DNA from: an uncultured Planctomycetota bacterium
Lineage (GTDB): Bacteria; Planctomycetota; Planctomycetia; Isosphaerales; Isosphaeraceae
Length of the DNA: 64,000 nt
NCBI GenBank assembly: GCA_963845755.1
Contig: CAWJTV010000001.1
Coordinates: 160,001 to 224,000 of the forward strand
Reading direction: 5' to 3'
In this document: one piece after another, positions 42,285 through 64,000 of the stretch
How positions within the stretch are numbered: position 1 is the first letter of the stretch
Layout of the letters: every line of letters begins with the position of its first letter
The notes under the pieces: model-generated
What the model was told of the DNA's origin: nothing
Databases searched by the model: none
Seen by the model: only the letters and a program-made list of their open reading frames with translations
Made by a program: the position numbers and the translations under genes

Positions 42285-42980
42285 CTTCGGCGTTCCCTTC
42301 ATTAACTTGCCGCTTGGAACCGTATGCTGGAGACGGCCGTCCCCGCGCTGCCCCTCGTCCGCTGCATTTTCGGCTCGGAGGGATTGCAAGGAGAATACGA
42401 GAACGAATTGTTCCTCAAGAATGAGGAGGAACGCTTGCATTGACGGATCGGATGAGATTCTCCGCATCGAAGTTGATTCGAGAAACTCTCCCGCACAATC
42501 CGGGCGTTCGTTGTAAACCTTTCCGCCATACCCGGCCGATAAACCTTCCATGATGACGACGCGGCGGGCTCCCCCTTGATCCCCTCGGTTCGAAGGAGGC
42601 TGCCGGAGAAGTCAAGGCCCGTCCTCGGCCCTGCGATCGCGATCAATTCGACGATCGCAATCAAGAGCGGCCATTTTTCCCCAAGGGGGCGCTCTTTCGA
42701 TCGGCCGCGGACTTGCTGAGTCCCCTGTCTTATCGCTCGCTTGCTGGCTCCTGGACACCGCACGACGGGCGTAATCGCCGGCGAAGAGCGGCGCAAGAGA
42801 GTGAAGGGGGGGATGCTGTTTCCTGCATTGTCGCTCAACTGAGAATCCTCGCGCCAACCGCGCATTTCGGATCATCCAGTTCACCCTGATTAGCCGATCA
42901 ATCGCTAGGATCCGGCTCTGCGGGAGCGGTCGATACCGTGATCGCGCCACGGAACCCGTACAGGAAGGGGAGTGTGTAGG

Positions 42981-44687
42981 ATGAAACGATCCGCCGCGCC
43001 AGTGATGCTCATCATGGCGTTGCTGTTCTCCGGTGCCGAGCCTGCCCGGTGCGGGGCTCAGCAGCCGTCATCGGCCATGCCATCGTCGAACCAGCCGCCC
43101 ATGACCGTACCGTCGCAAGCCCAGCCGGGCCGATCGACCGCGCCGAGTACGGCCCTTCCTGGCTCTGTGCCCTCGGTGGCGCCCCTTCAACCGCCGGGCG
43201 AAGGGGCCATGCCGTCGGCCACGGCCCTGGCGCCCGGGGCTGGGGACCTGTCCTTGAAGCTCAAGCCCGCGCCGCTGGACTCGACCGATTTCCGTTTTCC
43301 GATCAATCTCGCCACGGCCTTACGACTCTCCGACGCGCGTCCCCTGATCGTGGCGGCCGCGCAGGCCAGCGTGTGGGTGGCCGAGGCGAAACTGACACGG
43401 GCCAAGGTCCTCTGGGTCCCTCAGCTCAATCTCGGTGCCGATTATATCCGGCACGACGGTGGCGGCCCCGACTTTAACAAGGGCATCATGACCGCGCCGA
43501 GCGTGAACTTCTTCTACGGCGGTGGTGGCATGTGGCAGAACGTCGCCATGACGGATGCCATCTTCCAGCCCCTGGTCGCGCGGCAAGTGCTGAGGTCCCG
43601 TCAGTTCGACATCCAGACCGCGAAGAACGACTCCTTGTTCATGACCGCTAAAGCCTACTTCAGCGTGCACGAGTCTCGGGGGATGTTCGCCGGCGACCTC
43701 TACTGCGTCGAGCGAGGGCACGACCTGATCGAGCGGATCGCCCAATTGAGCCACGAACTGGTCCCCGCGGTCGAAGTGGATCGGGCCAGGAACCTGGTGG
43801 CCGACATCGAGCAGAAGGCCACCATGTCGCGCCAGCGGTGGCGCGAGCACAGCGCCGACCTCACCCAGGTTCTGCGACTGGATCCCCGCGCCGTGGTCGT
43901 CCCGCTGGAGTCCGATCATCTCCAGCTCACCTTGATCGACCCGGCCAGGACGCTCGACGACCTGATCCCCGTCGCTCTCACCAATCGCCCCGAGCTCGCC
44001 GCTCACCAGGCGATGGTCCAGGCGGTGGCGTCGGCGATCCGCCGCGAACGAGGGCGACTCCTGCTCCCCAGCGTCCTGATCAACGGCTTCCAGACCCCCT
44101 ATGAAATGATCCAGGCCGGGATCTTCGGCCTGGGCCCCAACAACCTCATGAACCAGTGGACCGGCCGTATGGACCTGAGCTATCAGGCACTCTGGGAACT
44201 GGAAGCCTTCGGGATCGGCAATCTGGCCCGGATCAAGGAGCAACGTGGTGAACAATCGAAAACCATCATCGAGCTCTTCCAGACCCAGGACCACGTGGCC
44301 GCGGACGTCACCCGCTCCATGGCGCGTCTCCAGTCGGCGACCGCGCGAGTCAGCCAGGCCGATCGCGCCTTGCGCACCGCCATCATCACCTTCAACGGCA
44401 ACTTCGAGGGCCTGAGACACACCACGCGATTTGGCGACGTGCTGGTCCTGGTCAACCGGCCTCAGGAAGTGGTCTTCGCCCTCCAGTTGATGCAGATCGC
44501 CTTCTACGAATACTTCTCCACGGTCGCCGACTATAACCGGGCCCAGTTCGAGGTGTTCCACGCGCTGGGCTACCCTGCCCAGGAAATCACCTATCTCCGG
44601 CCCCCCGGCGACATCCAGCCGGTAGACCTCGCGCGGCCGACCTACCTGCCGGTAGTGGGGAATGGGCCGCCTCCGGCAACTCGTTAG
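42981..44687 (+). CDS. TolC-family outer membrane efflux protein
   Basis: Signal peptide, PINLATALRL, ALTNRPEL, duplicated OEP helical halves, YNRAQF. Confidence 0.85.
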   Translation: MKRSAAPVMLIMALLFSGAEPARCGAQQPSSAMPSSNQPPMTVPSQAQPGRSTAPSTALPGSVPSVAPLQPPGEGAMPSATALAPGAGDLSLKLKPAPLDSTDFRFPINLATALRLSDARPLIVAAAQASVWVAEAKLTRAKVLWVPQLNLGADYIRHDGGGPDFNKGIMTAPSVNFFYGGGGMWQNVAMTDAIFQPLVARQVLRSRQFDIQTAKNDSLFMTAKAYFSVHESRGMFAGDLYCVERGHDLIERIAQLSHELVPAVEVDRARNLVADIEQKATMSRQRWREHSADLTQVLRLDPRAVVVPLESDHLQLTLIDPARTLDDLIPVALTNRPELAAHQAMVQAVASAIRRERGRLLLPSVLINGFQTPYEMIQAGIFGLGPNNLMNQWTGRMDLSYQALWELEAFGIGNLARIKEQRGEQSKTIIELFQTQDHVAADVTRSMARLQSATARVSQADRALRTAIITFNGNFEGLRHTTRFGDVLVLVNRPQEVVFALQLMQIAFYEYFSTVADYNRAQFEVFHALGYPAQEITYLRPPGDIQPVDLARPTYLPVVGNGPPPATR

Positions 44688-44983
44688 CGCATCCGCCGCT
44701 TCGACTCGGGTGAAGAAGTCCGAATGCGCCTTTCGCACGCAACCCATGCAAGGGGGATCCCGAATCCCCCAATTCTCCCTCTCGACCCGATCGCCACTGC
44801 CCCCGCAGATGAGATAAGCGATTCATGCCGAACGTCATCTGACCACTCGATCGCGCGCAGCTTGCGAATCGTCGGTTAGACTTAGTGGGGCCGGTCCACG
44901 GCCCGAGATGACGGTCGAGCGGAACCCTGAGCGGACAGCACGCCAGGGTCCATGTGATCGCAACTCTTTAAGGGGGCACACGG

Positions 44984-46045
44984 ATGTTTTCGCGGATGCG
45001 GCACAGTGGCGGAGTCCCATTGACGGCGCTGGTCTTGGGTGTGAGTTCCTGGATCTTCACCAGTTCATCGGCGATAGCCCAAGTAGGAGTTTCCCAAGGT
45101 GATGGCGTTCCCGCCACCGCGTTGGCGGTGACGGGGATCCCGACCGCGCTGCGGGACGATTGGTCCGGCGGCCCAGTCCGATGGAACCCATACGACCCTC
45201 CCGCCACCGGCTACGCGGGGATGGGTGACAGTGTGATCCACTCGTGGCTCTGGGAGCAAGGCGTCGCGTTCGACTACGCGCGGCACCATGCCGTGGGCCC
45301 CGGCTCCCTCGGCTATGCCACCTCGGGCAACGGCGAGTTCGGCGTCTACCCGGGCTTCCATGGCTTTGGCATGTCGTTCAGTCGGGGTTACGGATACGGC
45401 GGCGATGGCCTGGGCGTCGGCGCCAATGGCGGCTATCCGTATTACGGCGGCCCTGGCTATCCTCGTGGCGGCTACTGCTACCCTGGCCCGATGTTTGCCA
45501 GCGAGGGCCCCTTCGGGCCATTCACCGGCCCTCCGCCTTATCCGGAAGCGTACTTCGCCCCCTACACCGCCGCCGCCGCGACGACCGGTTCGGCCAGTGG
45601 CACCGCGCCGTTCGATCCGTTCAGCACGCCTTCCATCGAGGGCGCGCTCCCTCCGTCGGCCTCCTTGGCGCCGGGGCCGAACCCGATTTCCACGGTCCCC
45701 GCGCACTACCGCCTGGGGATCCAGGACGAGTCGGTCGTCAACCCCGACGGGACCCGCGGCTTGAAAATCACCAGCGTGGTCCCCACATCTCCGGCGGACA
45801 AGGCCGGCCTCCAGGCGGGCGACGTCATCCTTTCGATCAATGGCTTTCACACCGATGTACCCGGGAACCTGGTCTGGATCATCGCCAACGAGGCGCCCAA
45901 TAATCTCCTCACGATGACCGTTCGCAAGGTGGGTGATGGCAAGGAGCATCCCGTCATCGTCCAGCTCCCGCCGGTCCCCGTGGACACGTCCCGGCCGTCC
46001 TACCTTCCCCCGGCCGGCAATGGGCCGCCCCCGCCATCCCGCTGA
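44984..46045 (+). CDS. Exported Gly/Tyr/Pro-rich protein with C-terminal PDZ domain
   Basis: Signal peptide; LGIQ..GLKITSVVPTSPADKAGLQAGDVILSING. Confidence 0.85.
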   Translation: MFSRMRHSGGVPLTALVLGVSSWIFTSSSAIAQVGVSQGDGVPATALAVTGIPTALRDDWSGGPVRWNPYDPPATGYAGMGDSVIHSWLWEQGVAFDYARHHAVGPGSLGYATSGNGEFGVYPGFHGFGMSFSRGYGYGGDGLGVGANGGYPYYGGPGYPRGGYCYPGPMFASEGPFGPFTGPPPYPEAYFAPYTAAAATTGSASGTAPFDPFSTPSIEGALPPSASLAPGPNPISTVPAHYRLGIQDESVVNPDGTRGLKITSVVPTSPADKAGLQAGDVILSINGFHTDVPGNLVWIIANEAPNNLLTMTVRKVGDGKEHPVIVQLPPVPVDTSRPSYLPPAGNGPPPPSR

Positions 46046-46292
46046 GTATCACCAGCGTCTTCTCATGCTGGTATCAGTGAAGAGGATTCTCTTCAATCCG
46101 TTGCGGCAAGATGGGCACGGTTTGCCGATGGTCGCCCCCATTCAAGGGCGTTCGGCAAGCCGTGCCCATCCGGCGTCAGGTCCCGGCTCGACAAGGACGG
46201 AGTTTTCGGCGAGAAGTATTGATTGAACCCCCCCGAATTTCCGACGTAAAGAAAACGAGGGGTTTGTATCTACTCGAGCCAAGGGGCCATCC

Positions 46293-47069
46293 ATGCGCCA
46301 ACGTCCGGTCATGAGATTCCTGCCGGATCTCGAGCGATTTGAGGCGAAGCCATTGCTCAGCGCCGGTCCGATGACATCTCACGTCGCGAGTCTCGCGGCC
46401 GGGTCGAAGGGCTCGGCCCTGGATTCGGCGGAGACTTCGGTCGCCCACCGGGCCGCCGTCAAATCGGCCCATGACGCCGGTACGAGGCGACACGGAACCG
46501 CGGGCATCGGGTACCTCGCGTACCGCATCACAAACCCGACCGGTCGGCCCGTTCACCTGATACCCCCCTTCCAGCAGGTCCTGGTCCAAAATGTCCAACC
46601 GGTTCCCGGCAGGACTTACAACGTGCTCTATATCGCCGTGAGGAACGGGACGGCGAAGACCTTCACGGCCAGTGACGGGTTCACCGTACGAATCCCCGGC
46701 AATAGCGGCGGCCACGCCGTGAAGCAAGAGGGATTTCCGGTCCTGACGGGCAATGAGGTGTGGAAGCCGAATACATGGATGGTCTTCTATGTTCTGAGCA
46801 AGAAGTACTACCCGCTGTCGCCGCAGGTTGGAGCGAGTTTCCAGCTCCAGGCGGACGGCCGGTCATCCACGTTGGTGGCGGGTCCATCGGGAATCTTCCT
46901 CCGGCTCAAATATAATCCGGCCACCTTCGCCAGCACTCTCAACTGGATCGTAGCCTTTAGCCAGGGCGCGCAGTTGGGCAACGGTTCGAGAGTGGGCATG
47001 CCGGACACGGCCATCAATGTGCTCGTCTCGGCAGGGACCAACCGGATCGATTTTGGTGGCCACTTCTGA
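46293..47069 (+). CDS. Secreted hypothetical protein with LExRxLL-like signal (paralog X1)
   Basis: MRQRP..LERFEAKPLLSA; paralogous to 49324-50058; ends RIDFGGHF. Confidence 0.75.
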   Translation: MRQRPVMRFLPDLERFEAKPLLSAGPMTSHVASLAAGSKGSALDSAETSVAHRAAVKSAHDAGTRRHGTAGIGYLAYRITNPTGRPVHLIPPFQQVLVQNVQPVPGRTYNVLYIAVRNGTAKTFTASDGFTVRIPGNSGGHAVKQEGFPVLTGNEVWKPNTWMVFYVLSKKYYPLSPQVGASFQLQADGRSSTLVAGPSGIFLRLKYNPATFASTLNWIVAFSQGAQLGNGSRVGMPDTAINVLVSAGTNRIDFGGHF

Positions 47070-47351
47070 TCGGCCCCTCACGCGGCCAATGAATAATCCA
47101 ACGGCCCGGCCCAGGGCCATCCCCCTGGGACGGGCCGTCATCGTTTTCGCGCGAACGCGAGGCGTGGCAAGGGAGTAAACCAGGGGATGGCGAGTCCTGC
47201 ATTGTCTTCCAATCGAGAATCCTGGGTCGAGTCCGGCATTTCCGATCATCCCGCCCACGACGGTTTGTCGATGAATCCCCAAGAACGCGCTCAACCGGAG
47301 TGGCCGATATGATCGTCGCCGAAGAACCCGTGTTGGAGAGAGGTTTGTACG

Positions 47352-49179
47352 ATGGAACGATCCGCCTGGCCATTGATCGTCCTCGTGGTCTTGGTGTTCA
47401 TCTGGGTCGGACCTCTACCATGTGTGGCACAGACGCAGACCCTGCCCGTGCCCAGGTCGTCACCACCGACTCAATCGGCCTCGCCGACATCCAGCGCCGC
47501 CGAGGTCTCGATCCCGCCGCCTCGCGACTTTTCCCGAACGGGCGGATCGTCCTCTGCAGCGGCGCCGGCATCTCGGGTCGCCGTGCCGGCGCCGCGCCGC
47601 GTCCTCCTGGCTACGAACGGATCGTCCTCGGCGACGGCGACGTCGGCCGGCAGCACCCAGCCGGCGCCGGACGCGGTTCAAGGAACAGGAGAAGCGATCG
47701 TGCCGTCCACTTCGGCCCTCGCTCCCGTTCAGGGCGAGCTGGCCTTGAAGTTAAAGCCGGCGCCGCTGGAGCCGACCGACCTCCACTTTCCCATCAACCT
47801 CGCCACGGCGTTGCGTCTCTCCGATGCCCGGCCGCTGATCGTGGCCGCCGCGCAGGCCAGTGTGTGGGTGGCCGAAGCACAGCTCACACGGGCCAAGGTC
47901 CTCTGGGTTCCTACCCTCATGGTGGGTGCCGATTATATCCGGCACGACGGCGGTGGTCCGGATTTTAACAAGGGCATCATGACTGCGCCGAGCGTGAACT
48001 TCTTGTACGCCGGTGCGGGTGCGGACCAGTACGTCGCCGTGACCGATGCCATCTTCCAGCCGTTGGTCGCGCGGCAGGTCCTCAAGGCAAGGCAATGGGA
48101 CATCCAGTCGGCCAAGAACGATGCCCTGCTCCAGACCGCCGAGTCCTACTTCAACGTGCATCAGCATCGGGGCAAGTTTGCCGGCGCACTCTACTGCGTC
48201 GAGCGGGGGCACGACCTGGTCGAGCGGATCGCGCAATTGAGCCGGGAACTGGTCCCGACGGTCGAGGTGGATCGGGCCCGGAACATGGTGGCCGACCTCG
48301 AGCAGCAGGCCACATCCGCCCGGGAGGCCTGGCGCGTCAACAGCGCCAACCTCACCCAGGTCCTGCGGCTGGATCCCCGCGCCGTGGTGATGCCGCTGGA
48401 GCACGATCACCTCCAGCTCACCTTGATCGACCCGGCAATGGCGCTCCACGACCTTCAGCAGATGGCCTTGACCAACCGCCCCGAGCTCGCCTCGCTCCGG
48501 GCGATGGTTGAGGCGGCCGATGTGAAGATTCGCCGGGAGAAGTTGCGGCCGTTCCTGCCCATCGTCATGATCAATGGCTTCCAGAGCGCCGGCATGTATC
48601 TCCAGGCCGGAATCTTCGGCCTCGGGCCCGAACAGCGCCATGAACCAATACACCGGTCGCGTCGACACCAGCTTTCAGCTCATCTGGCAATTCGACGCCT
48701 TCGGAATCGGAAACCTCGCGCGGGTCAAGGAGCAGCGCGGTGGTCAGTCGGAGGCCATCATCCAGCTCTTCAGGAGCCAGGACATGGTCTCGGCCGAAGT
48801 GATGCGGTCCCTGGCGAGTCTCCAGTCGGCGACGGCCCGGGTCACCCAGGCCGACCGCGCCCTGCGCACCGCCATCATCACCTTCAACGGCAACTTCGAG
48901 GGCCTACGGCATACGACCCGCTTCGGCGACATCCTGGTCCTGGTCAATCGGCCGCAGGAAGCCGTCTACGCGCTCGAGCTGATGAAGCTCGCCTTCGACG
49001 AGTACTTCACCACGGTCGCGGAATACAACAAGTCGCAGTTCCAGCTCTTCCACGCGGTGGGTTACCCCGCCCGCGAGATCGCCGATCTCCATCCCCCCGG
49101 CGATATCCTGCCGGTCGAGACGGCGCGGCCGGCCTACCTGCCCGTCGTGGGCAATGGGCCGCCCCCGACAACACGCTGA
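47352..49179 (+). CDS. TolC-family outer membrane efflux protein, second copy (frameshift near 48630)
   Basis: Colinear with 42981-44687; extra G in CTCGGGCCCGAAC compared with the paralog. Confidence 0.85.
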
Positions 49180-49323
49180 AACATCGGCCTTCTGGCGGGC
49201 TTGGCCCCCCCATCAACGAAGTAATGCCCCTCGGCTCGGAACTTCTTGGCGCGAACGAACCGCCACGGATTTCCGACGTATTGAGAGGAGAGACTCTCGT
49301 TCTCTCCAGCCGAGGCTTCATCT

Positions 49324-50058
49324 ATGCGCCAGCGCCCGATGTTGAAATTCCGTCCAGGTCTCGAGCAATTGGATCACAGGCAACTCCTCAGCGCCGGCGG
49401 ATTGGCGAGCCTCGCGAACCACTCGAGGGACCCAACAGTTCACTCGGCCGATCAGTCGCGTGCTCGCGCGTCAGACGGTGACATCACCAGTAGTCGATCC
49501 GCACTCCCGACTGGGTTCCTCGCGTTCCGCATCACCAATCCGACGCATCAGATCCCCGTTGATCTGGTTCCTCCATTTCAGCAAGACCTGGTCCAATCGC
49601 GCCATCCCGTGCCCGGCGAGGTCTACAACGTGCTTTATGTCGCCGTGAAGAACGGGACTTCCCAGACCTTCAGCGCCAGCAACCGCTTTACCGTCAGGAT
49701 GACGAATCAGCCCCGCTCCGTCGCCTTCCCGATGCTGACGGGGACCCAGCAGTGGAAGCCGGGCCAGTGGATGGTGCTCTACATCCTGACCAAGAAGTAC
49801 TATCCGGTGTCGCCCGTGGCCGGCGGCTTCCAGCTCGATGCCGGCGGTCGGTCCTCGACGCTCGTGCCGGGACCGTCGGGGATTTTTCTTCGGCTGACCT
49901 ATAATCCCTCCACGTTCGCCAGGACCCTCAATTGGATCGTCGCCTATGGCCCGGGCGCGGAGTCGGGCGCGGGCCCGAAACTTGGCCTGCCTGACACGGC
50001 CATCAACGAGCTCGTCGCCGCCCGGACCCACCGCATCGATTTCGGCGGGCATTTCTGA
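49324..50058 (+). CDS. Secreted hypothetical protein (paralog X2)
   Basis: LEQLDHRQLLSA; RITNPT, YNVLY.AV.NGT, KKYYP, GPSGIFLRL, RIDFGGHF shared with X1. Confidence 0.75.
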   Translation: MRQRPMLKFRPGLEQLDHRQLLSAGGLASLANHSRDPTVHSADQSRARASDGDITSSRSALPTGFLAFRITNPTHQIPVDLVPPFQQDLVQSRHPVPGEVYNVLYVAVKNGTSQTFSASNRFTVRMTNQPRSVAFPMLTGTQQWKPGQWMVLYILTKKYYPVSPVAGGFQLDAGGRSSTLVPGPSGIFLRLTYNPSTFARTLNWIVAYGPGAESGAGPKLGLPDTAINELVAARTHRIDFGGHF

Positions 50059-50074
50059 GGGACCGATCACGACC

Positions 50075-51208
50075 TCATACGCTGACGATCACCACATCGA
50101 TCCCATCGACAGTGCGGAGGAGCCGTTCGAGGATCGAGCCGTGCAGGAGGCGGTGATACCAGGGCTGGCGACTCTGGCCCATGAGGATCACGCGGATGCT
50201 ATATTCCCGCGCGAAGGCCAGGATCGTCCTGACCACGTCCGGCCCGCGGAACGTCATGGGCACGCCTCCGAGCTGTTGCGCGAGTTCCAGGCTCTTGCTG
50301 ATGGCTCGTTGCGTCGCGGCATCGATCCGCGTCAGGTCCTCGGCCGGCGTCTGGATATAGACGGCGTACCACGGAGCATTCAACCGATCGGCCAGCCGGG
50401 CGGCCTTGCGGAGCAGGGCCGGAGCATTCGGGCTGCGGCTCGACAGGCCGACCATCAACCGGTCGGTCACCGACACGGGCGCGCGGTCGGCCTCGGCACG
50501 ACGGCCGCGACGGTCGATCAGGTGGGCCATCTCCGTCAGTGTGATCTCTCGCAGCCGGGTCAGGTTGCCCTGGGTGAAGAAATTCGCCAGTGCCCGCTCG
50601 GCGCGCTCCGGAGGGTAGACCTTGCCCGCCCGCAGGCGTTCCAGCAGGTCCTCGGTCGAGACGTCGATATTGACGATCTGATCGGCCTCCCCCAGCACCG
50701 AGTCGGGCAGTCGCTCCTTGATCTTCACCCCCGTGGCCCGCTCGACCTCATCGTAGAGGCTCTCCAGGTGCTGGATGTTGACCGTGGAGATCACATGGAT
50801 TCCGGCCCGCATCAACTCCTCGACATCCTGATAGCGCTTGGAATGGCGGCTGCCAGGGGCATTGGTGTGCGCCAATTCGTCGACCAGGCACACCGTCGGC
50901 CGACGGGCGAGGATCGCATCCAGGTCCATCTCGCGCAGCGTCACGCCCCGATACTCGATCGAGCGGGGTGGGATGAGCTCCAGGTCTCCGATCTGCTCGG
51001 CGGTCTCGGCGCGGCCATGCGTCTCGATCAGGCCGATTGCGACGTCGAGGCCCTGCTGCTTGAGCCGGTGCCCTTCGCGGAGCATGGCATAGGTCTTGCC
51101 AACGCCCGCGGCGGAGCCCAGGTAGACCTTCAGCCGGCCGCGTTCCTGGCGGCGGATCAGGCTGAGGAACTGCTCCGGGGTCGGACGGCTGGGTTCGACG
51201 ATGGCCAT
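50075..51208 (-). CDS. kdpD: KdpD N-terminal sensor + Usp domain only (no TM or kinase domain)
   Basis: GRLKVYLGSAAGVGKTYAML, LVDELAHTN, KRYQDV, NIQHLESL, Usp tail, stop at 50075. Confidence 0.88.
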   Translation of the reverse strand: MAIVEPSRPTPEQFLSLIRRQERGRLKVYLGSAAGVGKTYAMLREGHRLKQQGLDVAIGLIETHGRAETAEQIGDLELIPPRSIEYRGVTLREMDLDAILARRPTVCLVDELAHTNAPGSRHSKRYQDVEELMRAGIHVISTVNIQHLESLYDEVERATGVKIKERLPDSVLGEADQIVNIDVSTEDLLERLRAGKVYPPERAERALANFFTQGNLTRLREITLTEMAHLIDRRGRRAEADRAPVSVTDRLMVGLSSRSPNAPALLRKAARLADRLNAPWYAVYIQTPAEDLTRIDAATQRAISKSLELAQQLGGVPMTFRGPDVVRTILAFAREYSIRVILMGQSRQPWYHRLLHGSILERLLRTVDGIDVVIVSV

Positions 51209-51225
51209 GACCGGACCTCCGAGGA

Positions 51226-51792
51226 TCACTTCGGGGGCGTCGCATCGTCCAGGGCCAGATTGAGCCGCAACACGTTCACCCGTGGCGGGGCACCGACTAT
51301 CGCCCCGGATCGCTCGATGTGGGCCGCCATTTGCGCGCGCAGTCGATCCTCCGTCAACCCTCGGGCCGCGGCCACGCGCCCGAGCTGATACTCGGCCGCC
51401 TCGAGGCTGATGTGCGGATCCAGGCCCGAGCCGGAGGCCATCACCAGGTCCACCGGAGCCGGCTTCTCCCTGCTGGCCTTCACGGCCTCGGCCCGCTCGG
51501 CAATCTTCTTGCGCAAGTCCGGGTTCTTGGGACCGAGGTTCGATCCTCCCGTCGCGTCCGCCTTGTAATCGACGGCGGACGGCCGAGGATGAAAGTAACG
51601 ATCGGAGGCGAACGGCTGGGCCACAAGGTCCGAACCGATCACGATCCCCTCACGATCCGAGATGGGACTTCCTTCGGCCTGATGCGGGAAGGCCAGGTGG
51701 GCCAGTCCCCAGACCGCAACCGGATAAGCGGCGGCACACAGCACGAAAGTCACTGAGCAGGCGAGCAACGCCGTCTTGATTTCGCGAATCAT
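51226..51792 (-). CDS. kdpC: K+-transporting ATPase subunit C
   Basis: FPHQAEGS, YFHPRPSA, GGSNLGP, ASGSGLDPHIS, VNVLRLNLALD. Confidence 0.95.
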   Translation of the reverse strand: MIREIKTALLACSVTFVLCAAAYPVAVWGLAHLAFPHQAEGSPISDREGIVIGSDLVAQPFASDRYFHPRPSAVDYKADATGGSNLGPKNPDLRKKIAERAEAVKASREKPAPVDLVMASGSGLDPHISLEAAEYQLGRVAAARGLTEDRLRAQMAAHIERSGAIVGAPPRVNVLRLNLALDDATPPK

Positions 51793-51966
51793 CACGCAGA
51801 GTCTCCGATCGGGCCGCTGGAATTGCCGGAGGGGGCCGAAGAGCCGCGCTCCTGAGAACAGGTGGAGGAACAGGTGGAGCAACCGTACACTAGTTTCATC
51901 GGCGTCAATACAATAAATAAAATATTTTAATGATTACATTTATCAACATGAAGCTTTTGAACCGCA

Positions 51967-54106
<2,140 letters not shown>

Positions 54107-54189
54107 CGAAACATCTCCTCCATTCTTCCGAGTTCAGTCTTTTGTTCACAATTTACTTGCATCGGGCACGCCGGAGCGAAGCGCCTGAG

Positions 54190-55943
54190 CTACGGTTGAA
54201 CGGTCGTCAGGTGGTCGGCGATGGGGCCGAGCACGAGCGCCGGCATGAACGACAAGGCGCCGACGAGAATCACCGTCCCCAGCAGCATGCCGGCGAACGT
54301 CAGGTTGTCCGTCTTCAGCGTGCCGACCGTCTGGGGGACGCGTTTCTTCTGGGAGAGGAAGCCGGCGATCGCCAGGGGGAAGATCAGGGCCGGGAATCGT
54401 CCCAGCAGCAGGACGATGCCCGTGGCGATGTTCCACGGCGGGTTGTTGTCCCCGAGGCCCTCGAACCCCGAGCCGTTATTGGCCGCCGCCGAGGTGAACT
54501 CGTAGAGGATCTCGCTGAAGCCGTGCGGGCCGGGGTTGGCGCAGAATGCCTTCCATGAGGTCGCCGCGAAGATCGCCGTACCCACGCAGATCAAGAGCGG
54601 ATGGAACAGGACGGCCATCATCGCCAACTTGACCTCCTTGGCCTCGACCTTCTTGCCGAGGTATTCGGGCGTCCGCCCGACCATCAGACCGGCGATGAAC
54701 ACGGCGACGATGATGTACGACAGCATGTTGAGGAACCCGGCGCCGATGCCGCTGAAGACGACATTCAGCATCATGTTCGTCATCGGCACCATGCCGGCGA
54801 TCGGGTTGAGGCTGTCGTGCATGCTGTTGACCGAGCCGTTGGAAGTGGCCGTGGTGATCGCTGCCCAGGTCGCCGACGCCACCGGCCCGTTGCGGACCTC
54901 CTTGCCCTCCATGTTCGGCCCCTGGGCCACCGGCAGCCCCTCGATGGCCGCGCTGGGCTGAGCTTCGGCGGTAACGGCCACGATCATGCCGACCAGGAGG
55001 AAGGCCAGCATCACGCCATAGACCACCATGGCGTGGGCGCGGTCTTTGAGCATCCGACCGAACATGACCAGCGAAGACATCGGCAGGACGAGGATGGAGA
55101 ACACCTCGAGCAGGTTGCTCCAGGGTGAGGGGTTCTCGTAGGGGTGGGCCGAGTTCGGATCCGAAGAAGCCGCCGCCGTCGGTGCCGAGCTGCTTGATCG
55201 CCACCAGCGCGGCCACCGGGCCGCGGGCAATCGTCTGGGTGGTCATCTTCGTGGCCTCGCCATCGAGCGTCTTCGCCTGCAACGCTCCCTCGAAGGTCAT
55301 CGGCATCCCGGTGGCGACCAGCAGCAGCGCGACGATCAGGGCCAGGGGCACGAAGACGAGGACCAGGCTCCGCATCAGGTCGAGGTAGAAATCGCCGAGA
55401 TGCTTATCGCTGCGCAGGCCGCGGACGGCGGCCAGCATCACGCACAGCCCGGCCGCGGGCGTGACGAACTGGAGCCAGACGATCCCGCCGAGCTGGCTGA
55501 AATACGACAGGTGCTGCTCGCCGGAGTAGTGCTGGAGGTTGGTGTTGGTCACGAACGAGCAGACGGTGTTGAAGATCACGCCGGTGTCGGCGCCGGGGTG
55601 GTCGACTCCGGCGGCGTCCTTGTATCCCGTGGCCCCCAGTGACCCCTTTCCGTCGGGGTTCAACGGCAGATACTGCTGAACGTAGAGCAGGCCGAAGGCC
55701 AGGACGAAGAGGGCGGCGTTGAACGCCAGCAGGGCCACGGCATACCGCTTCCAATCCATCGAGGCCGGCTCGCGGCGGCCGAGCAGTGCGCCAGAGGGCC
55801 ATCGGCAGCACATCCAGTCCCCGGCCGACGCGGTCGGCCGGTGGATCGAGGACGCGGGCCATCCATAGCCCGATCGGCACCGAGGCCGCAATCGGGAGGG
55901 CGAGCGCCCAGAACGGGTGGATCCACGAGAAGATCAATTCCAC
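54190..55943 (-). CDS. kdpA: K+-transporting ATPase subunit A (frameshifts near 55800 and 55160)
   Basis: SFVTNTNLQHYSGE, IKQLGTDGGGFF, NSAHPYENP, GRTPEYLGKK, SAAANNGSGF. Confidence 0.95.
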
Positions 55944-55968
55944 GGACAGATCTCCGGTCAGGTGTGGT

Positions 55969-56049
55969 TCAGAAGCGTTCGGGCCGGATCATCACGTACC
56001 CGAGATAGATCAGCGCGAGCACAGTCAGCACGGCGGTCAGGTAGAGCAC
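55969..56049 (-). CDS. kdpF: KdpF peptide (26 aa)
   Basis: GTG start after GAGAGGGG; MLYLTAVLTVLALIYLGYVMIRPERF with the diagnostic PERF end, directly before kdpA. Confidence 0.88.
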   Translation of the reverse strand: MLYLTAVLTVLALIYLGYVMIRPERF

Positions 56050-56079
56050 GGCAGCAGCCCCTCTCATGTCATAGCGCGG

Positions 56080-56160
56080 TCAGAGCCGGTCGCAGGCCGC
56101 GACCAGGCCGAAGAACAGGGCGAACAGGATTATCCCGATAGCAAGTGTACCAAGGGCCAT
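56080..56160 (-). CDS. 26-aa membrane micropeptide upstream of kdpF
   Basis: Strong GGAGGAGG RBS; MALGTLAIGIILFALFFGLVAACDRL. Confidence 0.75.
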   Translation of the reverse strand: MALGTLAIGIILFALFFGLVAACDRL

Positions 56161-56243
56161 GGTTGTCCTCCTCCATCGGTAGTCGGCGGCGAGATCGGAC
56201 CGATCCGATCTCGCAAGCGTTGCCATTTCGCGGACGTCCGCGA

Positions 56244-57054
56244 TCATTCCGCAGCCGGGTTGATCGCCGCATTCTGGTAATCGAGGCCGAACCGCTCGCA
56301 GTAGCGCTTCAGGCCGTCCAGGGCCAGGGCATGGTGACGGTCGCGGCTCAAGGCCCTCCGGTAGGATTGGTAGGCGGCATGGTACTCACGCAAGCTCTCC
56401 TGGAGAGCGCCACGCAGTGCGTTCGCCGCGGCGGAGTTCGGATCGAGGTCGAGTGCCTGCTGAAGCAGATACTCGGTCAGGTTGACCTGGCCTCGCTCCC
56501 ACGCCGCGCCGGGCCACCGCGAGCGTTTCGGTAAACCGATGGGCCAGGGCGCCGAGCGAATTGGCCGTGGGCCGGTAAGATTCCGTCTCGACATGGGGGC
56601 GCCTCCGGAGCACGTCCAGGACCGTTTGGCGTAAGACGGTGGGTTGAACCGGCTTGGACAGGAAGTTGACGGCACCCAGCTCCCTGGCGCGGATGGCACT
56701 CGGGACGCTGCCGTGGGCGGTGATGACCACAATGGGAACGTCGATCCTCTCGTCGCGGAGTCGTCGGAGTACTTCCATCCCATCAAGTCCGGGCATCCGG
56801 AGATCGAGGAGTGCGACGGAAACCGCGTCGCTCCGGATGGCGCCGAGGGCTTGCTCACCGTCCTCCGCTTCGCTCACCGCGTATCCGGCGGCCTCGAGGG
56901 CCACGCGGAATCCCAGACGGCTGCTGGCCTCGTCGTCCGCGACCAGGATTGGGGAAGACCCGCCGCAGGGGGTGGTCTGGTTCGCGCCGCCGAACCACTG
57001 GGGTTCGAACCGCTTTTCACTGTTAGTGTTGATATATTTAATTATATTCGCCAT
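56244..57054 (-). CDS. Response regulator receiver + TPR protein (frameshift near 56500)
   Basis: ILVADDE, LLDLRMPGLDG, ITAHG, FLSKP; then LQQALDLDPNSAAA..YRRAL TPRs; start uncertain. Confidence 0.8.
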
Positions 57055-57656
57055 CTGAAGCTCGGTCCGTTTGCTGTCAACCCGAAGACATTCCGATCCT
57101 TCCGAGATTTCGTGAGAGCAAGAATCCGAAAGTCGAAGCCATGCGTGTTCTTCCGATACGGATTGGCGAAGGGACGTGATGTCGGTCGTATTGTTGCAAG
57201 ATGGACGCATCCCACCGAATCGGAGGCACGGTGGGCCATGCCCACCTGACGGACGAGGGGGTTGTTAGCATCGGCCGTGCCGGATCCGAGGACCCGAATC
57301 CCAAATCAAGGTACGGTGACGAGTTGTGATCTTAGCATTGTGAGCCGCGAGCGATAGAACCCCGGAGTTCGCCCTGCAAAGAGCACGATTCCGGCCCCCG
57401 AGGATTGCAGAATGCGCGACGCGAAGCCGCGATCCTTCGCGATTCATCCTCCACGTTTCCTGCTTGACATTCCCTCCACTTCCACGAAGTGCGGCACGAG
57501 ATGGCTTACCACACACGCCCTCACCCACCCGAACCTTCGAAAAGTTCGACGTAATCGTCCGATTCGCTCAATTCGCGACAATCGGAGAACCGATCAACGA
57601 CGACACGGGCGATCGTTCTGGAACGCTCGGCTCGACGGGGCAGAAGGAATCGCTCG

Positions 57657-59323: not shown

Positions 59324-60810
59324 TCAAGGGCCCGGGGGCGGACTGGCTCGCCGTGCGACTTTCTCGTCAACGGTCGTCGGCGCAACCTCCACGGGAGCGT
59401 CGTCGGTGAGGAGCGATAGTTCGCTGACGATCACGCGTTCCGAGCCATCGATCGGCCGCCAGGGCTCCGAGCCGGTCGCTTCGGCCTCGGAGGGCGGGAT
59501 GCGTTGACTGACGACCTCGATCCACTGGCCGTCGCTGACGCCCGTCTGGATTTCCGTCCGCACGGCATGGCCCTGCTCGTACATCCAACAGAACGTCTGG
59601 TCGCCGCTATACGTTAGTGCGTTCAACGGCAGAGTTCGCACTCCGGGCCGATCGATGAACACCTTGACGTAGGCGTACATCCTGGGCAAGAGCTGACTCT
59701 TGGGGTTGACCAGGTTGACCTCGGCGCGGAGGGTCCGGCTCTTGGCGTTTAGGGCCCAGGCCGTCCGGGTGACGGTGGCCGGGATCGGTTCGTCGCGGTA
59801 CGCCTTGGCCAGGACGGTGGCCTTGGTCCCGATGCGGACGAAGTTGGCGTCCGCCTCGGGAATATCGACGAAGACGCGGACGATATCGGTGCGGTTGACC
59901 ACGTAGATCGGCGCGGCGGCGGCGCCGGGCGAGAGGTCGCGCGCCGGGGATCCTGGCGGTGGGCCGTGGGGTCGCCGGCACCGGGCAGGAGGAAGTCGAA
60001 CGTATTGGCGTTGCGGACGGTGATCACGCCGTCGAACGGCGCCGTGAGCGTGAGGTAGCTCACCCAGGCCTGCAGCCGACGCTCCTCGCTCTCGGCCACC
60101 TTCAGGTCCGCCTCGGCGACCTGGACGTCGACCTCGGCCTTGGCCAGCACGGCGCGCCGGGAGCGAAGCTCCGCCCCCGCCCGCTTGACCATCGCCTTCG
60201 CCTGGTCCCGCGCCGCCGAACTCGACGCGAGCTGGTCCGTCGACTCGCGGAGGACACGGGGGGCGATCACGTCGTTGGAGATCTCACTCTGCATCCGCTT
60301 GACCTCCGTGCTCCAGCGGTTGACTTCGGCCTGGTACTTGTTGAGGATTTCCTCGGCCTCCTTGACGCCCGCCTCGGCCGCCGTGACGTCGGCCCTGGCC
60401 ACACTCACCACCTCCTTGGCCAGGTCGATCCGCTCCCGATCCAGCACGACCCTCGCCTTCCTGGTACCGTGGTCCTCTTCCAGCTCGGGCACGAAGAGCG
60501 TGGCCAGCACATCGCCCTTCTTCACCTTGTCGCCGATGTCCACGAGCCACTTCTTGATGTAGGCGGTCGGCTTGGAATAGATCGAGGTCCGCTCATACGC
60601 TTCGATGAAACTGGGCTGACCGACGACCCGGACGATATCCCGGATCGGCGGTTCGAGAATCCGCACGGTCGGCGGCTTCGCGTCGCCCGTAAAGTCGAGT
60701 CCAGGGTCATGGCGGCAGCCCGGTGTCGCAAGGGCCGCCAGGAGCCACAACGCCAACCAGCGGCAGCCGGCGAAGCGATCCGATATCAGGGGCCGAAGAA
60801 CCAGGCGCAT
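59324..60810 (-). CDS. RND periplasmic adaptor (membrane fusion) lipoprotein (frameshift near 59950)
   Basis: ATPGC lipobox; VDIGDKVKKGDVLA, LTAPFDGVIT, VRVFVDIPE, SRTLRAEV, IQTGVSDG. Confidence 0.9.
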
Positions 60811-61369
60811 CGGGAACCTCATGAGATGGAAGACTTCTTCACCAGCGCCGTCGGTCTCGAGATCGGCGCATCGCCGCAGTCCGGGGATTGGCCTTCTCCA
60901 TCGGACTGCGCCGGAGATGGGGCCGACGGGCGCCCCGCCGAACCGACCTCTCGGCTCGAATTCGCTCGCGAACGACCTCCAACGGGCCGTCGTGCGCATG
61001 AGGACTCGTTCCGGCAAATCGACGACGAACGGACCAGACTCCGGACGACTACGAAGGGGTAGAACGAAATCGCCACGACCGAGGGAGACTCCTCCCGAAT
61101 CGTCGGGGCGACACGATTTCCGAATAAGTCAATTGAGCTGAGACGGTTGGGGGTTTGATACGGGCCGCCTCACCCTCGACGATCGTGGTATCCTCAAACC
61201 ACGCCCATCGATGAGGCTATCACCTGGGTTAGAGCCCGTCAACCTACCCGATTAGCGGCGATCCTGGCCCCGGGCCGCAATCGCCACTACCCGGGCCGAC
61301 CCCGAAGTCCCCACAGGAGCCAGCGACGGCCGGTGGGACGATCCTGAAGCTCCGTCGCCGAATCCCGGA

Positions 61370-64000
61370 TCAAGAGGGCGGTCCCTCAGGGGCCTCGGGA
61401 CTACGGTCGCCAGATGAAGAATACTCGGCTGTGATCGGGATCGGAGGAGACACGTCCACAGCGACCGGGATCAAAGGAGACACGTCGGCCGCGTCCCCCG
61501 ACGCGTCGTTGGCTTCCGGGGCGATGCCGTTCCCAGCGAGGTGCGGTGCGGACGGCAGGGACGGCTGCAAGAACTCCATCGGCTGGTTCGAGGCGATGCC
61601 GTTCCCAGCGAGGTGCGGTGCGGCCAGCAGGAGGGATGGTGCCGCCGCGTGCGCGACCACGTGGCCGGAATGGCCCTCGCGGGCATGGTCGCTGGGGTCG
61701 TAATACGCACTTTCGGGGTCGTTCGGGTAGATCGACGGCGACACCGCCACCTTGTTGCCGATCACCACCGCGAAGATCGACGGCACCACCAGCAAGGTGG
61801 CGAAGGTTGACATCACCAGCCCGCCGATCACCGCCAGGCCCAGCGGTGCTTGCATCTGGCTCCCCCGCTCCAATGCCAACGCCATCGGCACCATGCCCAC
61901 CGTCATCGCGCAGGCCGTCATCAGGATCGGACGCAACCGCTCGCTGGCACCCTTGATGGCCGCCTCCACCGAGGGCACGCCCTTCTTCCAGTGCTCGTCG
62001 ATGAATGACACCAGCATGACCGAGTTCGACACCGAGACGCCCAGGGACATGATCGAGCCCATGAACGACTCGATGTTGAGCGAGGTCTTGGTGAAGTAGA
62101 GGACCGTCGCGATGCCCGCGAGCACGCCCGGCACGGAGCCGATCGCGATCAGCGACAGCCGCGGCGATTGGAAATAGGCGGTCAGGAGCACGAAGATCAC
62201 GAACACGGCGACCGCCAGCCCGATCCCGAGCGACAGGAACATCTCGCGCATCGGCGGGAGCTGGCCCAGGGGCTCCACCCGGACGCCGCGGGGCGGTTCC
62301 CCGGCGGCGGCGATCGCCCCTGCGACCTGTCGGGAGGCCCGCCCCATGTCTTCACCCTCCACGTTCGCGGTCAGGGTCAGGTAGCGCTGCGACATGTCGC
62401 GATCGAGCTCGCCGGGCCGCACGCCCTTGCGAACGGTCGCCACGTCGCGGATCATCAGGTTGACCAGGGGATTCACCGACTGGAGCGGCAGGGTCTCGAG
62501 GTCTTCCGGCTTCTCCATCCGCAGGGGCGGGATCTGGATCTGCACCAGGTAGTCGAAGCCGGTCTTCACGTCGATCCAGTAATTGAGGTTGGTGAATCGG
62601 GTCGACGAGGTCGCCATCACCAACGCATGGGCCACATCCGCGACCGTGGCAGAGCTCAAACCCGCCTTCTCGCGGTCGATGTTGACCTCGACGCTGGGGT
62701 AATCGAGCGTCTGCACGAACTGGATGTCCCGAAGGTAAGGGATGGATTTCATCATCCTGGCGATCTTCGACGCGTGCTGCCGGACCATCTTCAGGTCGGT
62801 GCCGACGATGCGGACCGCGATCGGCGTCGGCGAGCCGAAACTCATGACCGAGGTCACGATGTCGCCCGGCTCGAGACCGAATGTCGACATCTTGGCTTGC
62901 CGTAGCGCTTCCGCCTTGGACAATCCACCCTGTTCCATCCGCTCGGCCAGCCAGGGGATCACCCGATCGGGGAGAACCTTGCGGAGCCGCTCACGGAACT
63001 CGTCGATTCGGATCCCGCTGCTTTCCTTCAGCGCGATGCGCAACTGGCCGTCGTCGGGCCCGCGCATGAACAGCACCATGTTGTCGATGCCGAAGTTCGG
63101 GGCGACTTGCCCCACGTAACCCATCGTGATCTGGACGTTCTCCGGCTTGGCCTCGCGCTCGATCTCTTCGAGGCACTTGACCGCCATCCGCCGGACCAGC
63201 TCGAAATTGGCCCCCGGCGGCGGCCGGAACCGCAGGACGAATTGCCCGGAATCGATCTGGGGGAACAGCTCGGTACCGACCTGCATCCCCAGTCCCCCCA
63301 GGATCAGGATACACCCTGCGACATAGGCGGGCACCACCCACCATCGCAAGCGAACGAACCAACCCACCACCTTGCCGTAGGCTTTGAGCGTCCTGCCGAA
63401 CAGTCCGCCCTCCCCCTCGTCCCCGCCATGTCCCCCGTGGGGCCTGAGCAGGGCCACGCACAGGATCGGCACGAAGGTGCTGGAGAGCAGGTACGCCGAG
63501 ATCATGGCGAACCCGACCGCGAGGGTCAGCGGCATGAACAGTGCCCGCAGCGGGTCGCCCATGATGAACGCTGGGACGAAGACCGACAGGATGCACAACA
63601 ATGCCAGCAGGATCGGCACCGCCGTGGCGTAATTCCCGCGCAGCACCGCCGTGGCGATCATGGGCGTGCTCCGCATCTGCACGTGGATGTTCTCGATGGT
63701 CACCGTCGCCATATCGACGAGGATGCCAATCGCCAGCGCCATGCCGCCCAGCGACATGATGTTGATCGTGTTACCCGTCAGCCACAGGCCCACCAACGAT
63801 CCCAGCAGCGCCAGCGGGATGTTGGACACGACGACGATCACGCTCCTCAGGTCGCCGAGGAACAGCAGGATCATCAGACCGGTCAAGCCCGCACCGATCA
63901 ATCCCTCGATCGCCACGCTCTCGACCGCCGCCACCACCGTCGGCGACTCGTCGAACTCGAAGTTGATCGACACGTCCTTGGGGACCGCGTCCCGGAACAT
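61370..64000 (-). CDS. RND efflux permease (AcrB/CusA family), 5' part outside window
   Basis: INIMSLGGMALAIGILVD, FPQIDSG, RLRPILMT, PLGLAVIGGL. Confidence 0.95.
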   Translation of the reverse strand: MFRDAVPKDVSINFEFDESPTVVAAVESVAIEGLIGAGLTGLMILLFLGDLRSVIVVVSNIPLALLGSLVGLWLTGNTINIMSLGGMALAIGILVDMATVTIENIHVQMRSTPMIATAVLRGNYATAVPILLALLCILSVFVPAFIMGDPLRALFMPLTLAVGFAMISAYLLSSTFVPILCVALLRPHGGHGGDEGEGGLFGRTLKAYGKVVGWFVRLRWWVVPAYVAGCILILGGLGMQVGTELFPQIDSGQFVLRFRPPPGANFELVRRMAVKCLEEIEREAKPENVQITMGYVGQVAPNFGIDNMVLFMRGPDDGQLRIALKESSGIRIDEFRERLRKVLPDRVIPWLAERMEQGGLSKAEALRQAKMSTFGLEPGDIVTSVMSFGSPTPIAVRIVGTDLKMVRQHASKIARMMKSIPYLRDIQFVQTLDYPSVEVNIDREKAGLSSATVADVAHALVMATSSTRFTNLNYWIDVKTGFDYLVQIQIPPLRMEKPEDLETLPLQSVNPLVNLMIRDVATVRKGVRPGELDRDMSQRYLTLTANVEGEDMGRASRQVAGAIAAAGEPPRGVRVEPLGQLPPMREMFLSLGIGLAVAVFVIFVLLTAYFQSPRLSLIAIGSVPGVLAGIATVLYFTKTSLNIESFMGSIMSLGVSVSNSVMLVSFIDEHWKKGVPSVEAAIKGASERLRPILMTACAMTVGMVPMALALERGSQMQAPLGLAVIGGLVMSTFATLLVVPSIFAVVIGNKVAVSPSIYPNDPESAYYDPSDHAREGHSGHVVAHAAAPSLLLAAPHLAGNGIASNQPMEFLQPSLPSAPHLAGNGIAPEANDASGDAADVSPLIPVAVDVSPPIPITAEYSSSGDRSPEAPEGPPS

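Follow-up and report, generated by a model that had tools for sequence, protein, structure and literature searches.

Outer membrane factors (OMFs), the family of TolC, ST50, OprM and CusC (PF02321), are described as having variable C-termini, which are among their least conserved regions and are involved in partner recruitment; the C-terminus emerges from the equatorial belt, and in OprM the tail affects the recruitment of partners (PMC8277102). Here we describe a locus from an uncultured planctomycete of the family Isosphaeraceae (assembly GCA_963845755.1, contig CAWJTV010000001.1), contained in a stretch of 64,000 nucleotides (positions 160,001 to 224,000 of the forward strand; hereafter the window, on which coordinates are numbered), in which two TolC-like proteins and an accessory protein with a Gly/Tyr-rich (GY) domain and a PDZ domain end in the same short tail. 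In contrast to OMF C-termini generally, this tail is highly conserved and is shared with a non-OMF protein. It is the C-terminal arm of a TolC subfamily, real, under selection and confined to one family of bacteria, and some members of a co-inherited accessory family carry a copy of it. We speculate that in Isosphaeraceae, which are soil planctomycetes, the copy on the accessory protein docks it onto the TolC-like channel, a reading whose chances we judge to be evenly balanced.

The nearest precedent for an accessory protein on the surface of such a channel is YbjP, an Escherichia coli lipoprotein that sits on the periplasmic surface of the non-lipidated TolC via an extended linker (PDB 9tg4, 9v52) and is dispensable for efflux under laboratory conditions (PMC13082787). 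YbjP has its own globular domain and shares no sequence feature seen in the GY protein. The gene of the latter, by contrast, is part of the locus, and docking of its product would rely on a copy of the tail of the channel itself. No lipobox was found in the GY protein by eye. Among titles and the beginnings of abstracts, with most subscription papers outside our reach, we found no description of the tail, the locus or its accessory proteins.

The three tails of the window, as an earlier note made from the sequence alone had reported, lie on the + strand at 44619..44687 (C-terminus of the first TolC, TolC1, 3' of its last OMF helix), 45977..46045 (C-terminus of the accessory protein) and 49111..49179 (C-terminus of the second TolC, TolC2), and each of them is 22 residues long and directly followed by a stop codon. 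Their consensus is PVDTxRPxYLPPVGNGPPPATR-stop. In the tail alignments, about 17 conserved residues ending in xGPPP keep a constant distance to the stop, Arg is the final residue in 99% of the TolC tails, and the residue preceding GPP is Asn in 85% and otherwise variable (Asp, Glu, His, Thr, Tyr and others). The tail is Pro-rich, has no hydrophobic helix and found no match in a Pfam search. When a profile of the three tails was run against the 246,868 six-frame segments of the source genome (14.3 Mb), five matches were obtained at 42-56 bits, every one of them C-terminal, while the best non-tail match reached 14.8 bits, which excludes chance for the tails. Three of the five are those of the window and two belong to a second TolC pair on another contig (G000:C11:112157-115800, L001), one TolC of which is in two frames; this pair is accompanied by a TPR-like protein, an adaptor and an RND gene, without a GY gene or a gene for LEX, an orphan exported-type protein of the locus described below. 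The tail is absent from three other TolC loci of the source genome. One TolC paralogue (G000 C34, 38% identical) has an unrelated C-terminus ending in PPTR, and three stand-alone PDZ-domain paralogues (G000 C36 and C34) carry no tail.

TolC1 (42972..44687, +), the first of the pair, has a signal-peptide-like N-terminus and a Pro-rich linker. It falls below the cut-off of the Pfam OEP family (PF02321; E 7e-4), which TolC2 exceeds. However, its fold model (mean predicted local distance difference test score, pLDDT, of 83) has the duplicated topology of two strands and a long helix of OMFs, and it gave 43 Foldseek matches at E<=0.001, the matches listed being OMFs, with ST50 (E 3e-16) and TolC (E 2.7e-15) as the best. 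The window TolCs thus share with described OMFs the fold and the linkage to adaptor and RND genes, at 12-17% identity to solved OMFs. In the model, the tail follows the last OMF helix, its residues scoring 73-74 and its last three below 50. TolC2 (47352..49179, +) is the second outer membrane factor, and owing to a frame change at about 48620-48630 its tail lies in the second frame in the present assembly. That site had no coverage in four DNA read runs. Frame splits also affect neighbouring Kdp and adaptor genes, which suggests assembly errors. Among the best 120 of 2196 TolC1 homologues, 119 have the tail as their C-terminus, and it ranks in the top tenth for conservation among 17-residue segments of TolC (46 of 469). 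Thus, a subfamily of TolC-like proteins in Isosphaeraceae normally ends in this tail.

Scans of genomes and representative proteins were performed with a 30-column tail profile. In the family to which the window belongs, 71 of 121 genomes gave a match, and the named relatives are mostly Isosphaeraceae; homologues are recorded for Paludisphaera borealis and Tundrisphaera lichenicola, among others. In 400 other Planctomycetota genomes there was no full tail match and only three partial ones (E 0.001-0.009). From 1.84 billion representative proteins the profile returned 41, which by eye comprise 25 TolCs or TolC fragments, 11 GY/PDZ proteins or pieces of them, three short unassignable fragments and two repeat proteins matched by chance. 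In addition, 15 genomes chosen for odd or high tail counts were checked match by match. Their 58 matches fall on TolC in 51 cases (including two tails counted twice through frameshifts), on a PDZ protein in four and on a GY protein in one; the other two are a weak internal match and a half tail on transposase-like debris. In this last case (L170:1498-1776, -), the debris is joined to the last 12 residues of the tail and lies upstream of another gene, whose leader reads LESRQLLA; in P0270 the same transposase-like debris is fused to a PDZ domain plus tail. A search of the tail region of short proteins (30-193 aa) scored nothing, although it was insensitive, since the representative scan shows that such fragments exist. 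Among these representatives and in the 15 genomes, the carriers of the tail are the TolC subfamily and one accessory family.

This distribution bears on one explanation directly. C-terminal sorting signals such as PEP-CTERM and LPXTG occur on many unrelated carriers per genome and combine a motif with a membrane helix and basic residues downstream of it. A fixed length to the stop on two unrelated folds could be expected of a general sorting or anchoring signal of planctomycetes, and the earlier note had proposed a sorting tag among other roles. Unlike those signals, the tail has no hydrophobic helix and is found on two families only, both in the 1.84 billion representatives and in the 15 genomes checked; the source genome has just five carriers and three TolC loci of its own that are tail-less, and the other Planctomycetota lack a full match. 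With only two carrier families, a general signal is excluded for practical purposes, and we leave it a vanishingly small chance.

The accessory protein (44984..46045, +; 353 aa) has a signal-peptide-like N-terminus, a GY domain (residues ~106-204; 45299..45595, +), an HtrA/DegS-type PDZ domain (residues ~242-328; 45707..45967, +) and the tail. Its PDZ domain matches the HtrA/DegS type in fold and profile. Profile scans match the protein to HtrA-type proteins over the PDZ stretch only and found no protease domain, and unlike in HtrA/Deg proteases the PDZ is optional in its family. The GY domain, with a sequence like GFGLSxHxGYGYGGxxLGVGAxGGYPxYGG, has no confident fold (model pLDDT below 50); against the Atlas it gave three matches only, all below 0.9 and leads at most. 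It also occurs in stand-alone proteins of 220-280 aa without PDZ. Outside the tail, tblastn found no similarity of the protein to TolC1, in keeping with the description of the two as unrelated, but by context they are not, as the accessory protein is a fixed member of the TolC locus. The tail is present in 35 of the best 120 of its 188 homologues. The PDZ domain is found in 112 of these 120, in 35 with the tail and in 77 without, and most of the 77 stop right past the PDZ domain. Thus, the tail is optional on the accessory protein. The earlier note would have taken a lack of the tail in the PDZ orthologues of relatives as a sign of a one-off capture of a TolC 3' end. This holds for the greater part of the family, but orthologues in other genomes, 35 of the 120, retain the tail, so that it is not a one-off capture.

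The same survey allows us to evaluate whether the tail is a ligand of the accessory PDZ domain, with the accessory's own copy serving auto-inhibition or self-assembly. In favour of this, the domain is HtrA-like and intact, and its gene adjoins the TolC genes. However, the tail is retained in two proteins in which the PDZ is absent or deleted (L098, P0272), the PDZ is missing in 15 of the 61 GY genes of the loci while the adjoining TolCs still bear the tail, and in the accessory monomer model the last residues of the tail are of low confidence even with a PDZ present in cis. Moreover, HtrA-type PDZ domains prefer a hydrophobic C-terminal end, for which the terminal Arg is atypical. The persistence of the tail without a PDZ, the PDZ-less neighbours and the terminal Arg together make this role, also raised in the earlier note, very unlikely. 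The GY domain, and not the PDZ, is the inherited part of the accessory protein. Four PDZ-less GY proteins (P0076, P0081, P0083 and P0114) end in PPPGPR or PPGPR, below the threshold of the tail profile; the Pro-rich end of P0083 aligns loosely with the tail, and these ends are possibly decayed or convergent. A further candidate interaction, in which the PDZ would bind the C-terminal Phe of LEX, was rejected, as no co-variation was seen: LEX ends in Phe beside PDZ-less GY genes and its end diverges beside PDZ-bearing ones.

Selection on the tail acts on the protein, as had been suggested from the synonymous codons of the three window copies. In 88 TolC and 12 GY/PDZ tails, several synonymous codons are used at every conserved position, and since synonymous sites vary freely it is the protein sequence that is kept; a hidden DNA or RNA element in the tail was ruled out on the same grounds, as all synonymous classes vary. 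TolC tails have a pooled ratio of nonsynonymous to synonymous differences (pN/pS) of 0.17, over 600 sampled pairs, and the 12 GY/PDZ tails one of 0.30 (66 pairs; pS 0.55, pN 0.16); both ratios are biased low because the tails were picked by a pattern requiring the conserved residues. In 36 tail-bearing accessory rows, which were selected for having the tail, conservation is 0.84 in the tail, 0.68 in the PDZ domain and 0.31 in the linker.

Could the accessory tail nevertheless be without function, a remnant of a gene fusion that was refreshed, or lately copied, from TolC? Most orthologues are tail-less, decayed Pro-rich extensions form the end of some homologues, the transposase-like debris of L170 bears a half tail, and in several loci the two TolCs of a genome group as sisters, which indicates that the locus recombines; the position of the tail before LEX, described below, is also consistent with a fusion scar. 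Against this, the accessory tail has been kept over deep branches, with synonymous change saturating at the pS and pN just given, and in the tail-bearing rows it is better conserved than the PDZ domain and the linker. In nine comparisons, the codon identity between accessory tails and TolC tails of the same locus was 0.19-0.71, never near 1, and that with other TolCs was 0.30-0.59, so recent gene conversion from the adjoining TolC is not seen. In addition, PDZ-type tails have residue preferences of their own, with Asn at -19 in 51% (14% in TolC tails) and Ser at -1 in 51% (10% in TolC tails). We therefore find a relic hard to credit; the lack of near-identity within loci and the separate residue preferences argue for an old capture and suggest, as far as sequence comparison goes, that the accessory tail was inherited vertically afterwards. 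A single gain with losses and several gains are both possible, as the trees, one of which is a quick tree, fit either.

The tail belongs to a co-inherited locus. LEX1 (46293..47069, +) is a 258-aa orphan protein of exported type with a planctomycete-type LExxExxxLLS leader, and LEX2 (49324..50058, +) is its paralogue (55% identical). Their common domain of about 190 aa is 43-66% identical over 39 copies, which mostly end in DF(G/A/S)G(H/Y/R)F. No family or structure was found for LEX in Pfam, NCBIfam, the Atlas or the PDB sequences (one match at E 0.87); for the leader family PF07595, LEX2 scores 12.8 bits (cut-off 25.5) and LEX1 has no match, so that the likeness of the leader is by eye. LEX is present in 68 of the 121 family genomes, 67 of which are among the 71 with the tail, and the GY domain is present in 67, all of them within those 71 (lists compared by eye); these counts are given without a P value, as related genomes are not independent. 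Because of its near-perfect co-inheritance with the TolC family, LEX may be a subunit or a cargo, and its interest arguably equals that of the tail.

In the locus survey, in which TolC positions rest largely on tail marks, TolC genes occur mostly in pairs, adaptor and RND genes flank the pair in most loci, and there are two main gene orders, TolC-LEX-TolC-GY and TolC-GY-LEX-TolC, the latter being that of the window. The GY tail is present in 11 of the 23 GY genes followed by LEX and in none of the 34 followed by anything else; four more GY genes lie at contig edges, and one of them (L037) shows the start of a tail. Thus, what precedes LEX is a TolC tail in the first order and, where present, a GY tail in the second. 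That the GY tail is found only where a TolC end otherwise sits points to capture by local rearrangement, followed by retention, at least as judged from these sequences. Behind the stop codons of tail-less GY genes that precede LEX, no tail remnants were evident by eye in 13 loci.

These observations can be accommodated in a model in which an RND efflux locus encodes a TolC-like channel specific to Isosphaeraceae, which would have the tail as its C-terminal arm and would work with two partners, LEX and the GY protein. The arm would leave the equatorial belt of the channel and pack onto the TolC surface. A GY or GY-PDZ gene would then have been placed behind the first TolC and ahead of LEX, with an in-frame fusion that added a copy of the TolC 3' end to its own. 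Lineages in which the TolC-GY-LEX order arose would often have kept this copy, since it would hold the accessory protein at the site on the channel that the arm itself occupies. Such a tether would be optional, as most GY proteins lack the tail. It is also tempting to speculate that the locus encodes an undescribed machine for efflux or export, made up of the two TolC-like channels, the adaptor, the RND protein, LEX and the GY protein, in which the arm of 17-22 residues is an exchangeable docking module, the accessory protein swapping its own copy into the site of the channel's arm; we regard this extension as possible but doubtful.

When the accessory tail (32 residues) and two TolC1 chains without their tails were modelled as a complex, the score was 0.33 (0.33, 0.00 and 0.37 in the runs), which is weak, while the best of three controls was 0.00. 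The docking mark used was reached by 116 of 157 solved pairs and 2 of 215 mismatched pairs, and at values of 0.60 or less by just 18 solved pairs and both mismatches; contact agreement in the runs was at least 11% and partner pLDDT at least 36. This modelling shifts the odds for docking only a little. The suggestion that the tail docks its carriers onto one envelope complex is weakly supported, by this score and by co-inheritance. Several points weigh against docking on the channel. One of the three runs gave 0.00 and the model supplies no interface; TolC has its own arm in cis, which the accessory copy would need to displace; the tail is missing from 77 of 112 PDZ-bearing homologues and from 12 of 23 GY genes in the same order; the trees need 7 and 5 changes and their backbone is open; pN/pS is biased low and conservation high, the rows having been selected for the tail; and neither monomer model places the invariant last residues with confidence, so that their partner may be another protein.

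This last point leads to an alternative in which the tail is a linear motif binding a third component, such as the RND adaptor, LEX or an envelope enzyme, where TolC and the accessory protein would both dock. No competition with a tethered arm would then be required, LEX is found in 67 of the 71 tail genomes, and the terminal residues, although invariant in length and near-invariant in sequence, are unplaced in monomer models; the OprM tail has moreover been reported as important for the interaction with the adaptor (PMC8277102). In contrast, TolC pairs with intact tails exist in loci without LEX or GY (C11, L157), although the partner could be encoded elsewhere, and the complex score, weak as it is, favours TolC itself. 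We consider a third component unlikely.

A further possibility is that the tail acts in cis as a ribosome-pausing, arrest-like peptide during the synthesis of Sec-exported proteins. Its action would then be independent of the carrier, and it could adjust expression of the gene that follows or keep the nascent chain at the translocon. RAPP-like and LPPP arrest peptides share a C-terminal xGPP or PPP near the stop on exported proteins (PMC12992588, PMC10987492), and both XGPP and planctomycete LPPP arrest motifs are published (PMC10987492). The xGPPP end at a fixed distance from the stop, the signal-peptide-like starts on all carriers and the GY tail being seen only with a gene downstream would agree with pausing. 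However, RAPP-like peptides fix Arg, Gln or His before Ala/Gly-Pro-Pro, and the Arg is irreplaceable in ApcA, ApdA and ApdP (PMC12992588), whereas the corresponding residue of our tails is mostly Asn and variable. Arrest peptides also lie on small upstream open reading frames, whereas the tails are on full-size channels, many of them without a co-directional module gene: such a gene follows within 1.3 kb in 11 of 11 GY tails and in 87 of 115 TolC tails, 25 of the latter having none and three being at edges. Conservation hardly depends on it (0.92 without, n=24; 0.94-0.95 with, 0.95 before LEX, n=32), and the spacers to the next gene, of less than 100 to about 300 bases, have no common sequence by eye and in several cases contain a promoter-like motif. 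Pausing thus seems to us quite improbable, though it may serve the carrier's own biogenesis; in its bolder form, the arm would be a new class of C-terminal ribosome-pausing peptide in full-size outer-membrane proteins.

The promoter-like motif, GAACC-N15-CGTA, is found upstream of LEX1 (46225..46248, +) and of LEX2 (49257..49280, +), and similar GAACC/CGTA motifs precede LEX in three other loci; we take it to resemble an extracytoplasmic function (ECF) sigma promoter, a putative role. Genome-wide, this spacing is not clearly enriched (107 occurrences, versus 51-108 at other spacings). An inverted repeat with arms of about 19 bases (46110-46170), between the accessory gene and LEX1, is possibly a terminator or a small repeat element. 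In the window, a Kdp potassium-uptake cluster with a response regulator (50075-57210) separates the TolC block from a convergent adaptor/RND block, the two being usually adjacent in relatives. The latter block holds an RND periplasmic adaptor in two frames (59324..61017, -) and an RND permease with an approximate start (61700..64000, -) that extends beyond the window, past which further adaptor and RND genes follow; KdpA, KdpB and the adaptor are split across frames. In Tundrisphaera lichenicola the entire locus (L064) is on a 177 kb plasmid, and this location may be one reason why the locus is patchily distributed.

Descriptions of accessory partners for channels of the TolC type are recent (YbjP, 2026), and this locus offers two more candidates, LEX and the GY protein, of no known family and present in about 67 of 121 genomes. 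The narrow range of the tail locus limits its wider importance. It is nevertheless a natural experiment, as the same accessory protein exists with and without a PDZ domain, and either bearing or lacking a copy of the channel's tail. Should the tail serve in docking, the accessory protein would join the channel by copying the channel's own C-terminus, and the arm would be a short tag for attaching proteins to the channel.

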